Assembly: GCA_963701085.1 (NCBI GenBank)
Contig: OY969561.1
Coordinates: forward strand, 1,056,001-1,120,000
Origin: an uncultured bacterium
Lineage (GTDB): Bacteria; Babelota; Babeliae; Babelales; Vermiphilaceae
Direction of reading: 5' to 3'
Length of the DNA: 64,000 bases
Positions 43,701-46,700 of the stretch are shown in pieces; positions within the stretch are counted from its first letter, which is position 1, and every line of letters begins with the position of its first letter. A program made the position numbers.

Positions 43701-46700
43701 AAATATCTTAAAGAGCGGTATCTTGATTCAATAATGCTGAATGAGATTACTCCTCAGGTTATTGTTCCTTTATTAACAGAATATATAAAACATACGAATG
43801 CACATGCCTGAAATTGAATCCTTACAAGGAGTTGTTGATCGCGTTATTTATCAAAATCAAGAAAATGGCTTTGCTGTTTTTGTTATCCAACTGAACGCAA
43901 AAAATAGTGTTACTGTCAAAGGATGTGTGCCGACAATTACTGCTGGCGAACAGGTATTGGTGAGCGGCGTTTGGAATATGCATCAAAAATTTGGCAAACA
44001 GTTTGATGCGCAATCATGTGAAAAGCAGGCGCCGACTTCTATTCTTGGTCTTAAAAAATATTTGGGTTCGGGGCTTATCAAAGGTATTGGTCCGGTTTAT
44101 GGTGATAAGCTGGTAGCAGCTTTTGGTGAAAAAGTTCTTGAAGTTATTGATCAACATCCTGAGCGTCTTATGTCTGTTCCCGGTATTGGTGCTAAGCGTG
44201 TTGAAAAAATTGTCACTGCCTGGAAAGATCAAAAAGAGATTTCCAACATCATGGTTTTTTTGCAAAATAAAGGAATTTCTTCTACCTATGCAGTAAAAAT
44301 TTATAAGCAGTACAAAGAAAACGCTATTGCTATTATTGAGGAAAATCCATATCGCCTTGCACAAGATATGTGGGGTATTGGTTTTAAGACTGCTGATCAG
44401 ATAGCGCAAAAAAGTGGTATTGCTCCTGATTGTAAGCGACGCATTGTGGCAGCAATTTTACATGTTATTCAGACAACATCGAGTGATGGTAATTTGTATA
44501 TACAGCTCGAATTGCTTAAAAAAGAGATGGCAGAGTTGCTTGAGTTGGAACTTGAAGGCATTCAGCATACAACAAAATGTGCGCTGCATGATCTGTATAA
44601 TGCTGATAAAATAAAATTATTAACGCATAACGATATTCATTATATTACGTTGCCTTCATTTTATTTTTCTGAAAAAGGTATTGCGCATAAAATTGATAAA
44701 ATGGTCACATCGGCACCACATCATACATTTGATTTGGAGAAAATAAAAAAAAATTTATGGAATGATTCCTGTTTAAATCATTCTTCCCGCGCTCGTCCTG
44801 AACCTGTTGAAGGATGTCCCCGAGCGCTCGAAGAAACCCTTCAACAAGTTCAGGGCGAGCGCAAGGAGATGCATAACAATGGTATTGCCCTTAATGAACA
44901 GCAGCAGGAAGGTGTGCTCGCCTGTTTGCAGCACAAAGTTACTATTATTACTGGTGGCCCGGGAACGGGTAAAACAACACTTATTAAAAAATTATTAATG
45001 CTGCTTGATCTACAACGAGTTAAATATGCACTTGCAGCCCCAACAGGAAGAGCGGCAAAACGTATTACGGAAGGCACAGGAAGGCCCGCTTCTACTATTC
45101 ATCGGTTGCTTGATTTTGATGTAAGTACCATGTCTTTTAGATACAATGAATCCCATCCTCTTGCGGTTGATTATCTGATTGTTGATGAAGCATCGATGAT
45201 TGATGTGTTTCTTGCGAACGCATTGATTAAAGCATTGCCAGCATCGGCACATCTTGTGTTGATTGGTGATATTGATCAGTTGCCATCAGTTGGTGCGGGT
45301 AATTTTTTACATGATATGATTGCGAGTAAAAAAATTGCCACCATAAGTCTTAAGCATATATTTAGGCAAGCGCAAGATAGCCTTATTATTATTAATGCCC
45401 ATCGTATTAACAATGGAGAATTCCCAACGACGGAACATGAAAATTCGCGCAAAGATTTTATTTTTATTAAAGAAGATAATCCAGAAAATATACCAATGCA
45501 TTTGGAAGCTATTTATAGTAAAGCATTACGTCATTATGGCATCCACAAAGATGATACAATTGTACTCACACCGATGCATCGTGGCGTTGCAGGAACACAA
45601 AAATTAAATCATGATTTGCAACAGCTGTTGAATGGTAATAATGGTGGACCGGCTGTTGGGTATGCAGGAGCGCAGTTTCAGGTTGGTGATCGAGTGATGC
45701 AGCTGCGTAATAATTATGATAAAAATGTGTTTAATGGTGATATTGGGGTTATTGAAAGCATTAATGCAGAAGATAAAATAGTGCACGTACGTTTTTTTGA
45801 AAATATTGTTGATTATGAAACATCAGATCTTAATGAATTGGTGCATGCGTATGCAATTTCTATTCATAAAAGCCAAGGATCTGAATTTTCTGCCGTTATT
45901 ATTCCGGTTTTTATGCAGCATTTTATGATGCTGCAACGAAATTTACTGTATACCGCCGTTACGCGTGCAAAAAAATTATGTATAATCATAGGGCAATCGC
46001 GTGCTATTGCAATGGGAATAAAAAATAATAAAAGCAGCGAGCGTATTACGTTTTTACAACAATTTTTGACAACAGATTTAGCATGCCGATAAAAAAAATA
46101 ATTTTTTGTTTATGCATCATGGGCATAACCTTGCCTATTATTGTACGGGAAAAACAACCACGTATTGTTGTTATTGATCCTGCTGGTGATGCTAAACGTA
46201 CTGGTAGACGCATTGGTGATAGTTTTGAGCGTGGTCTGACATTGCAGTGTGTTGAAAAAATAAAAGAGATCATTGGAGAACGTGCTCCGCATATTAAAGT
46301 TGTTCTGACGCGCATGCCGGGTGATAATGTGTATGACTTACAAAATGCATCTTTGTCTAATCGCATTCATGCAGATCTTTTTGTGAGTCTCAATTTTTAT
46401 CATACGCAAGAAACTAAGCCTACTCTGTATCTGTACCAATTTTCTTATGGCAATGATTTTGCATGTTGTCAGCAAGGTTTAACATTACAGAGCTATGACC
46501 AGGCATATAGAATTAATAAAGAGACAACTGATGCGATGTGTCAGTTGTTTCAAAAAGAGCTTTTGCAACAAAAATACCATTCGCTTTGTACAGTTGCAGG
46601 GCCTTATCATTTGCCGATAAAACCATTAATTGGTATTGTCGCACCAAGTATTGCGGTTGAAGTGGGATTAAAAGGTAAAGATTTGTGGCATTATTATAGT

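Follow-up and report, generated by a model that had tools for sequence, protein, structure and literature searches.

Palindromic repeats read in frame within conserved genes of a Dependentiae bacterium share their arms with the inverted repeats that flank GIY-YIG nuclease genes

The recD2 gene of an uncultured bacterium of the Dependentiae (Babeliales) contains, inside its open reading frame, one copy of a palindromic repeat that is dispersed through the genome. This raises the question of what such elements are, what spreads them and how they come to persist in conserved proteins. We analysed the locus in a stretch of 64,000 nucleotides (hereafter the window; contig OY969561.1, positions 1,056,001 to 1,120,000), together with the rest of the genome studied (G000) and with the genomes of relatives. 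A preliminary description had reported that the repeat adds about 29 residues to RecD2, a ligase, DprA and a TilS fragment, and had likened it to the Rickettsia palindromic elements in a different phylum. The features of the window are listed in Table 1.

Table 1. Insert-bearing genes, palindromic elements and GIY-YIG units of the window (positions counted from its first nucleotide).
Feature	Position	Strand	Remarks
recD2 (SF1B helicase RecD2)	43798..46092	+	764 aa, intact, insert-bearing; TIGR01448, 829.7 bits
Palindromic element inside recD2, in frame	44782..44868	+	87 nt, codons/aa 329-357
Left arm core, recD2 element	44789..44813	+	Hairpin unit, type A; reads ARPEPVEG
Right arm core, recD2 element	44838..44862	+	Inverted hairpin unit, type B; reads LQQVQGER
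murE (UDP-MurNAc-tripeptide synthetase)	18292..19869	+	525 aa, intact, insert-bearing; NF001126
Palindromic element inside murE, in frame	19088..19173	+	About aa 266-294
Unit M3	46820..47217	+	46-nt terminal inverted repeats flanking GIY-YIG gene; in spacer between amidase gene and next gene
GIY-YIG nuclease gene of M3	46879..47169	+	96 aa, single domain, catalytic residues retained; PF01541
Unit M2	35301..35692	+	Terminal inverted repeats flanking second GIY-YIG gene
GIY-YIG nuclease gene of M2	35357..35704	+	115 aa, 74% identity to M3 protein

The palindrome of recD2 was found as described, in a frame that stays open throughout. It reads SSRARPEPVEGCPRALEETLQQVQGERKE and lies about 8 residues ahead of the start of helicase domain 1A. 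As RNA the element is predicted to fold at -54.1 kcal/mol (z -7.98), and equally good folds appeared in 0 of 200 shuffles. Alignment with ten orthologues of the same genus and one of the same family revealed that all 11 are without the segment; the 34-residue gap reported before was recovered in nine of them, the remaining two having gaps of 35 and 36 residues. RecD2 is present in 30 of 30 relatives searched, with open frames of 724-738 aa in 28 against 767 aa in G000, the two frames outside that range being fragmentary (G016, 574; G025, 560). At the DNA level, comparison with the 11 orthologues gives a 102-nt gap, with flanks too variable for the exact ends or the target site to be read. RecD2 shows 79-86% identity to its congeners. 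Its AlphaFold model, built on a 12-sequence alignment, is poor overall (mean pLDDT 62.3, pTM 0.39), with the insert (residues 324-362) as one of several stretches below 50 pLDDT, so that the model only hints at a flexible loop.

The second insert-bearing gene of the window had been presented as a MurF-like ligase. The insert was recovered and reads SSARPELVEGYPRALEETLQQVQGEREK, but the protein is MurE, since it scores 411.6 bits against profile NF001126 (cut-off 373) and its top Foldseek matches are MurE proteins. The segment is missing, as a gap in the alignment, from 13 of 13 orthologues. Structure prediction gave a confident MurE fold around the insert (mean pLDDT 82.5; TM 0.80/0.85 against E. 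coli MurE 1E8C), and the sole stretch below 50 pLDDT, residues 257-302, contains the insert. DprA and TilS are encoded outside the window, and their orthologues are without the segment in 10 of 10 congeners each; the absence first noted in one sister species now extends to 10-13 genomes per gene. TilS proved not to be a fragment, with 352 aa against 324-334 in congeners. The insert-bearing host genes are intact and single-copy, and alignments indicate that the catalytic motifs of RecD2 and MurE are retained and invariant.

Allowing up to five mismatches, we found 67 left and 67 right arms in G000 (0 and 0 in a shuffled genome) and six arm matches within the window against 0.00 expected. The number of arms per genome across the genus is 117 in G000, 17-97 in nine of ten congeners and 0 in G001, a genome that has no class I nuclease (defined below) either. 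The short palindrome is a pair of inverted hairpin units of about 40 nt, each of which consists in G000 of a 5' flank GCGCTCG, a short stem, an 11-nt loop GAACYTGTTGA and the returning stem, with flank and loop conserved. The short elements combine a type A and a type B arm. Direct repeats of 2-9 nt at offsets of 0-12 around the 36 short elements did not reveal a target-site duplication; among cases seen more than twice, the strongest has 7 observed against 2.56 expected. A search of six loci against Rfam at permissive thresholds returned just two sub-threshold chance matches, and no intron or ribozyme.

Genic copies are depleted. When only ORFs of at least 150 aa with the element deep inside are counted, 5 of the 36 short paired elements, as opposed to 0.609 of random windows, and 12 of 134 arms are genic; we could not reproduce the earlier figure of 26 in-ORF copies out of 104. 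The caution that N-terminal copies might lie upstream of the true start was justified for those inspected (IleRS, TpiA and others), which precede plausible true starts. The four copies in conserved genes of G000 all use the reading frame ARPE(L/P)VEG...LQQVQGER, a preference that is statistically weak (p about 0.06 if the choice is limited to the two fully open frames); peptide-based matches in relatives are biased towards this frame and were excluded from the count. The copies that persist in conserved genes have this stop-free, hydrophilic frame and are located in variable loops or linkers.

The hairpin units that form the short palindromes also bracket genes. In G000, three intact single-domain GIY-YIG ORFs, two of them in the window, are each framed precisely by a left and a right arm, in units of 390-398 nt with outward-facing arms. 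Compared with the repeat of unit M3, the left arms of the copies in RecD2, MurE and TilS agree at 38-39 of 40 positions and the right arms at 34-36 of 40. Because the same units bracket nuclease genes, the short palindromes appear to be gene-less counterparts of an IS-like unit. Their origin as simple internal deletions of the three present GIY-YIG units was considered and rejected, since the short elements pair types A and B and a type B arm is found on 0 of the three units.

The M3 nuclease matches PF01541 with an E value of 2e-18, its other match being a weak one to T5orf172 only, and the frame of the M2 nuclease continues into the right repeat (...LEDILRQTQDERGEE). Residues Y8, Y18, G20, R28, H32 and E66, which are of catalytic type, are invariant in 16 sequences. 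Among solved proteins, UPF0213 BH0048 and EF2693 come nearest; the match to solved UPF0213 has an E value of 1.5e-13 for this nuclease against 1.2e-4 for class II, which is flanked by NTS-like repeats. Inverted repeats with a score of 20 or more, and as long as 147 nt, surround 13 of the 16 class I loci in relatives (class I meaning at least 49% identity), against a maximum score of 12 at 168 displaced control positions; such repeats are absent at 8 of 8 loci of an 80-aa GIY-YIG class in relatives. The sequence of the repeat follows the nuclease subclade and is distinct for the 96-99-aa, 92-aa and 95-aa subgroups. G005 carries 27 arms, yet no class I nuclease at E <= 1e-5.

The pairing of hairpin and nuclease reaches well beyond the Babeliales. 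Across phyla, 47 of 75 testable loci proved to be bordered by inverted repeats that reach a score of 16 or more (maximum 12 in shuffles) and show the same motif. The hairpin consists of 5'-CCGYTCR, a covarying stem and the loop GAGCYTGTCGA, and flanks this nuclease clade in many bacterial phyla. At least four contiguous stem pairs adjoin the conserved loop in 154 of 195 distinct hairpins (mean 41 and maximum 59 after shuffling of partners), and stem positions 2-4 interchange CG, GC and TA. In five genomes from other lineages the loop motif was counted 6-64 times per genome, and its reversed control 0-1 times. The literature searched, with subscription journals mostly outside it, contained no description of this hairpin or of repeats flanking GIY-YIG genes other than Ssn.

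Comparison among species revealed that insertion sites are used repeatedly. In DprA, Ddl, MurE and one spacer, different element types occupy the same site in different species. Three congeners have 7-11 nt between the amidase gene and the gene that follows it, whereas this spacer is filled by a GIY-YIG unit in G000, by another hairpin pair in G004 and by a family-2 pair in G003. Sister genomes also carry analogous in-frame inserts. This variation among orthologous sites, which may be filled, empty or occupied by another element, fits ongoing insertion. The re-use of sites in sister species, the identity of the arms with the GIY-YIG terminal repeats and the assignment of the ligase to MurE were all absent from the preliminary description.

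Considered as a whole, the data are probably best explained if the palindromes are gene-less counterparts of a GIY-YIG IS-like unit, copied with the help of the nuclease, and if those within genes are tolerated in-frame survivors. The short palindromes would be the MITE- or REPIN-like form of this small unit. By analogy with Ssn, the nuclease most likely recognises the hairpins when the DNA is single-stranded and helps them to be copied elsewhere, and it is on this analogy that we infer mobilisation by the enzyme. The analogy crosses subfamilies, since a search of G000 with the published SRM motif gave 0 matches (2-4 in shuffles), the arms do not fit it, and the nuclease is nearer to solved UPF0213 proteins than class II is. 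Against this explanation stand the hydrolytic nature of GIY-YIG nucleases, which are not known to be transposases, the missing target-site duplication, the type B arms that are on none of the present units, and G005, with its arms but no class I nuclease. Each insertion event would be completed by host repair or recombination. The majority of genic insertions would be lost, and those that persist would add a multiple of three bases, with a stop-free frame, in variable surface loops or inter-domain linkers. Because the survivors are of this kind, RecD2, MurE, DprA and TilS are predicted to stay functional, with a flexible loop of about 29-34 residues in addition.

A rather unlikely alternative is that the hairpins are sites that serve the host, with the nuclease restricting or shaping incoming or recombining single-stranded DNA, slow spread of the hairpins by recombination, and the in-gene copies as by-products. 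Such a role would agree with the retention of DprA, with the many intergenic copies, with the conservation of the hairpin-nuclease pair across phyla and with the modulation of transformation by NTS/SsnA in Neisseria (as described in part of PMC11893778), but it fits poorly with arm numbers that vary from 0 to 117 among congeners, with the variable occupancy of orthologous sites and with in-frame copies in essential genes that bring no obvious host benefit.

We also consider it unlikely that the repeats owe their spread to a different mechanism (recombination by the host, replication slippage at hairpins or a transposase not identified) and that the GIY-YIG genes are just frequent neighbours, the hairpins acting as terminators or regulators, or the genes travelling as cargo. 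The outward-facing arms on both sides of the genes, the tracking of nuclease subclade by repeat sequence and a pairing that holds across phyla all speak against it, as does the result for Y1/RAYT transposases, for which PF01797 gave 0 matches in G000, a genome in a single contig with 92.6% completeness, and a control search matched 6 of 14 genomes. In its favour are the arms of G005 without a nuclease, the type B arms missing from the GIY-YIG units and the lack of a target-site duplication; GIY-YIG is also not known as a transposase fold.

It seems very improbable that the genes with an insert are pseudogenes, whether dead or still decaying, or that the insert is removed from RNA or protein in the manner of an intron or intein. 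The hairpin of -54 kcal/mol would be costly in an mRNA and the assembly is a MAG, but the genes have open frames and invariant catalytic motifs, the identity of RecD2 to its congeners is ordinary, a search at E <= 1e-20 matches murE just once in the genome, which keeps its peptidoglycan genes, Rfam gave no intron or ribozyme match, and the 29-aa segment has no intein-like features. A wrong collapse of repeat copies into genes during assembly is hardly credible: repeats do break short-read contigs, and contig X3 (44391-44783) stops exactly at the element, but both junctions of the RecD2 element are crossed by public metagenome contigs (left, 44590-44809, 0 differences; right, 44834-45200, 2 differences), which may derive from the sample behind the assembly itself, and several independent genes all keep their frame, with analogous in-frame inserts in sister genomes. 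Four public DNA runs contained no contig across the whole stretch and no empty-site joint.

Arms that bracket nuclease genes provide a testable candidate for the spreading enzyme. What spreads such elements, and why proteins tolerate them, is now open to direct experiment. A conserved hairpin would also account for recurrent spurious peptides in genome annotations, and may point to a wider toolbox of sequence-specific single-stranded DNA nucleases. As a more speculative reading, which we regard as doubtful at present, UPF0213-type GIY-YIG nucleases and the conserved-loop hairpin might form a pan-bacterial and apparently undescribed sister system to Ssn/NTS, with IS-like units and gene-less doublets. 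The repeated return of the Babeliales hairpins to the same permissive sites might then reflect hairpin-directed homing by a single-stranded DNA nuclease that writes peptide cassettes of about 30 residues into essential proteins, a candidate kind of enzyme for palindromes of the Rickettsia type as well.

The comparison with known systems draws on parts of PMC10969869 and PMC11893778. In-frame gene palindromes have been known since 2000 from the Rickettsia palindromic elements (Ogata et al. 2000, 2002), which are about 100-150 nt long (PMC10969869). The likeness suggested in the preliminary description is supported: in both cases a multi-copy palindrome of an intracellular bacterium is found in frame in unrelated conserved genes, here intact ones, and adds a short conserved peptide at fold-compatible sites. 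Unlike those elements, the present ones belong to a Dependentiae (Babeliales) host, are shorter at 87 nt and have arms that are also terminal repeats of a nuclease gene, which brings a candidate partner enzyme into view. The likeness proposed here is one of phenomenon.

Intragenic MITEs such as ERIC, Coxiella QMITE1 and BOX are likewise small ORF-bearing repeats that are sometimes fused in frame with genes, but, compared by description, they are without a GIY-YIG partner; in the part of the 2024 review at hand (PMC10969869), GIY-YIG and endonuclease have 0 occurrences. As in MITEs, the 36 short pairs share terminal inverted repeats with the gene-bearing units of 390-398 nt, but they show no target-site duplication, and the partner ORF is a GIY-YIG gene instead of a recognised transposase. 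REP/REPIN-RAYT and IS200/IS605 systems share the inverted hairpin doublets without target-site duplication; in them, too, the repeats lie around one small enzyme gene and probably work in single-stranded form. Their enzyme is an HUH Y1 transposase, whereas here it is of the GIY-YIG type.

The closest known system is Ssn/NTS, although the nearest solved proteins belong to UPF0213 instead. Ssn GIY-YIG nucleases bind and cut single-stranded DNA beside their own flanking hairpin repeats, in an IS-like layout of repeat, gene and repeat (Chenal et al. 2025, PMC11893778). Both have a GIY-YIG protein with one domain and a length near 95 aa (96 aa here; about 94 aa as the Ssn criterion), a gene flanked on both sides by genome-dispersed hairpin repeats, and hairpins that combine a stem-loop with an oriented, conserved flank. 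The hairpin itself is another one, with the loop GAGCYTGTCGA, a motif absent from the supplementary text searched of PMC11893778, where the sole Babeliales genome listed is without SRM or Ssn. Copies here are read in frame in essential genes, whereas NTS are rarely genic (2% of copies, PMC11893778). These data suggest that the principle of a GIY-YIG nuclease acting with its own hairpin extends from Ssn to a second subfamily, which has its own conserved hairpin in many phyla.

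The palindromic repeats that the preliminary description placed in frame within conserved genes are real, and our analysis supports its interpretation of them. Two of the host genes, recD2 and murE, lie in the window. RecD2 displays the OB_YrrC, HHH_RecD2, AAA_19/30, SH3_13 and UvrD_C_2 domains, and its element is a near-perfect palindrome with an RNA fold of -54.1 kcal/mol (z -7.98; 0/200 shuffles as good). The second host, initially called a MurF-like ligase, is MurE: it scored 411.6 bits against NF001126 (cut-off 373) and 389 against TIGR01085, and its predicted structure best matched MurE crystal structures (1E8C, TM 0.80/0.85), with MurF structures ranking lower. 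It is the single murE match in the genome. Walker and other motifs are invariant in the alignments that include the proteins of this genome. Immediately 5' of recD2, and overlapping its start, we observed a 296-aa ORF for which no Pfam family was found.

Positions of the host genes, repeat copies and associated GIY-YIG genes (window or contig coordinates; contig features marked "outside" lie outside the window)
Feature	Position	Strand	Product	Remarks
recD2	window 43798..46092	+	764 aa	TIGR01448, 829.7 bits
Element in recD2	window 44782-44868		SSRARPEPVEGCPRALEETLQQVQGERKE	codons 329-357
murE	window 18292..19869		525 aa	
Element in murE (second in-window copy)	window 19088-19173		SSARPELVEGYPRALEETLQQVQGEREK	
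ORF 5' of recD2	window 42921-43811		296 aa	
GIY-YIG unit between arms	contig 231591-231980			
GIY-YIG unit between arms	window 35301-35692			
GIY-YIG unit between arms	window 46820-47217			0.7 kb downstream of recD2
Fourth GIY-YIG gene (locus L140)	contig 339192-339431			outside; family-2 flanks
Ddl-like gene (loci L139, L163)	contig 1137308-1139110		601 aa	outside; family-2 insert in frame
Single hairpin unit in frame	contig 498870-498894		…SGARGYPSTSSGRAR…	outside; position 280 of 389-aa ORF
Palindrome variants, 86-88-nt spacer	contig 522765-522900, 615119-615256, 951864-952001			outside
Two neighbouring acidic ORFs	contig 209530-211778		…RELNAVFTTEPVEVSGRAQEEIS…	outside; each with element, then module

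As had been claimed, the extra segment is missing from the orthologues, with a gap at the element in RecD2 (11/11), MurE (13/13 relatives) and, outside the window, DprA and TilS (10/10 congeners each). RecD2 is present in 30 of the 30 relatives searched, with open frames of 724-738 aa (two fragmentary genomes excepted) compared with 767 in this genome. In the alignment of 11 orthologues, 10 of them from the same genus, the gap spans 34 residues precisely over the element in nine and 35 and 36 residues in the other two; at the DNA level it measures 102 nt. The TilS gene is not a fragment as first described, since the protein has 352 aa here and 324-334 aa in congeners. Public metagenome contigs, possibly from the same sample as the genome, cross both junctions of the recD2 element, the left over 44590-44809 with 0 differences and the right over 44834-45200 with 2.

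Each arm of the repeat is a hairpin unit composed of GCGCTCG, a 4-bp stem (TCCT/AGGA or CCCT/AGGG), the 11-nt loop GAACYTGTTGA and the returning stem, and two such units, inverted and with a common central GAGCGCTC, form the short element. The 25-nt arm core (up to 5 mismatches) occurs in 67 copies per orientation in the 1.2-Mb genome and in none in the shuffled genome. Left and right arms are paired with a spacer of at most 130 nt in 40 cases, 36 of them with at most 30 nt, and no target-site duplication was detectable at the short elements. The left arm is stop-free in two frames (ALVLNLLK, ARPELVEG) with a stop in the third, and the right arm has no stop in any frame. Palindrome variants with a longer spacer carry another conserved insert there, possibly a nested repeat. 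A recurrent module of about 25 nt, CCTATCCCTAAACTAATTTTTTCCT, adjoins several elements (e.g. contig 208018, 363311, 793285, 909780, 957701), suggesting larger composite repeats. Another module, common to two acidic low-complexity ORFs, is seen again at contig 762189.

In three cases a left and a right arm are separated by 340-348 nt, with one GIY-YIG ORF between them. These ORFs share 72-100% identity, match PF01541 (E 2e-18; the sole other match is a weak T5orf172) and are flanked by nearly perfect repeats of 31-46 nt. Residues Y8, Y18, G20, R28, H32 and E66 of the nuclease are invariant across 16 sequences. Of the 16 loci of this nuclease class in relatives (at least 49% identity), 13 lie between inverted repeats that score at least 20 and reach 147 nt in length, while the maximum score at 168 displaced controls was 12; a class of 80-aa GIY-YIG proteins has such repeats at 0/8 loci. 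No Y1/RAYT transposase was found in this genome. A second palindrome family, whose loop is enlarged and whose outer arm is CCGCTCGCCCTGAGTGTTTT, flanks a fourth GIY-YIG gene that is more distant (58% identity); the arm of this family gave 49 matches genome-wide and none in the shuffled genome. In two full units (window 35357-35704, and locus L014 in the relative G006), the GIY-YIG frame stays open into the right repeat, where it terminates with a …LQQVQDER-type peptide, in a frame identical to that of the host-gene inserts.

Genes are depleted of the repeat: 5/36 short elements lie deep in ORFs of at least 150 aa, compared with 61% of random windows. Four of these five are the copies in RecD2, MurE, DprA and TilS, all read in the hydrophilic frame ARPE(L/P)VEG...LQQVQGER; the fifth lies in a non-conserved acidic ORF and changes frame between arms. 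The preliminary description cautioned that in-ORF copies near N-termini may precede the true start, and those inspected do sit ahead of a plausible one. The RecD2 insert is located about 8 residues ahead of the start of helicase domain 1A (alignment to D. radiodurans RecD2), and the MurE insert within a stretch (226-335) left unaligned with solved MurEs. In the MurE model, a confident one (mean pLDDT 82.5, pTM 0.82), the sole segment below 50, 257-302, contains the insert; the RecD2 model is of low overall quality (62.3), with the insert (324-362) among its low-confidence stretches. The 389-aa ORF with a single hairpin unit in frame has a hydrophobic N-terminal half and looks FtsK-like by eye.

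Arm counts in the genus (up to 3 mismatches) range from 0 to 117, the maximum being in this genome; the congener without arms also lacks the nuclease, as does another with 27 arms. Between the amidase and the next gene, three congeners have a spacer of 7-11 nt and a fourth has one of 41 nt; in this genome the GIY unit occupies the spacer, in G004 a different hairpin pair and in G003 one of family 2. The DprA site holds a single-arm remnant in G007 and an arm in the other frame in G003, and G007 DprA has a further, separate full element near the C-terminus, in the same frame. The murE of G009 (locus L124) is a 567-aa ORF with an in-frame family-2 insert of 60-70 residues, some 20 residues upstream of the site occupied in this genome. 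One loop of a Ddl-like protein (other loci L164-L173) has inserts in 8/11 genomes, at least seven recognisably element-derived, of several types and all in frame, and none in 3/11. Filled, empty and differently filled sites argue for ongoing insertion at preferred or re-used sites, through targeting or mere tolerance. The Ddl-like protein reaches 736-872 aa in most relatives, and the upstream match in this genome has several stops and adjoins a family-1 element.

Scanning one genome per species gave at least 565 relatives of the nuclease, the best 80 of which come from Sphingomonadales, Betaproteobacteria, Chloroflexota, Desulfobacterota, Campylobacterota, cyanobacteria and Babeliales. Among the matches listed, 75 loci were testable, and in 47 of them inverted repeats scoring at least 16 flank the gene (shuffle maximum 12); these repeats carry CCGTTCGCCCTGAGCTTGTCGAAGGGC, plainly the arm of this genome in a GC-rich form. 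In 154/195 distinct hairpins, 4 or more contiguous pairs stand beside the conserved loop (partner-shuffled mean 41, maximum 59), and stem positions 2-4 vary among CG, GC and TA. Covariation of the stem around a conserved loop would be expected of a hairpin recognised by a protein. The 13-nt loop motif occurs in 6-64 copies in five genomes of other lineages (reversed control 0-1), frequently as close +/- pairs or tandem arrays. In the Dehalococcoidia genome G033 (source of locus L047), it forms evenly spaced tandem arrays of alternating orientation (e.g. C2:857139-857730, C2:1708268-1709042) reminiscent of BIMEs.

The data directly show how the repeat is built, its association with the nuclease genes, polymorphism at orthologous sites and depletion from genes. 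Most likely, the hairpin units are ssDNA recognition sites of the small GIY-YIG nuclease, whose cleavage would mobilise them, and the gene-less doublets may spread in the manner of MITEs or REPINs. Selection would then retain within genes only copies that are in frame, stop-free and located in loops, with the inserts presumably translated and the host proteins active.

Chenal et al. 2025 (PMC11893778) describe the Ssn family as single-domain GIY-YIG proteins (CDD cd10448) whose binding and cleavage are confined to ssDNA, beside NTS/SRM hairpin repeats; these repeats flank Ssn genes in a layout likened to an insertion sequence, and NTS copies rarely lie within genes (2%). The GIY-YIG gene between hairpin repeats has this Ssn/SRM architecture; however, no site in this genome matches the published SRM search motif, nor do the arms conform to it. 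The ten text supplementary files of that paper do not contain our loop motif, and the sole Babeliales genome in its supplementary listings has no SRM and no Ssn. The nuclease matches the solved UPF0213 protein BH0048 with E 1.5e-13; a second GIY-YIG class in relatives, with flanks NTS-like by eye, scores weaker (E 1.2e-4). The passages of PMC10969869 that review in-frame bacterial repeats, among which Rickettsia palindromic elements figure as the most extreme example, nowhere mention GIY-YIG or endonuclease. In the literature searched, including that on UPF0213/YhbQ and Dependentiae palindromes, we found no description of the hairpin sequence, of GIY-YIG genes with MITE or inverted repeats, or of such a system. 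Neither a proven member of the RPE or Ssn/SRM sequence family nor categorically new, the system represents a new variation on two known themes, the Rickettsia palindromic elements and Ssn/SRM.
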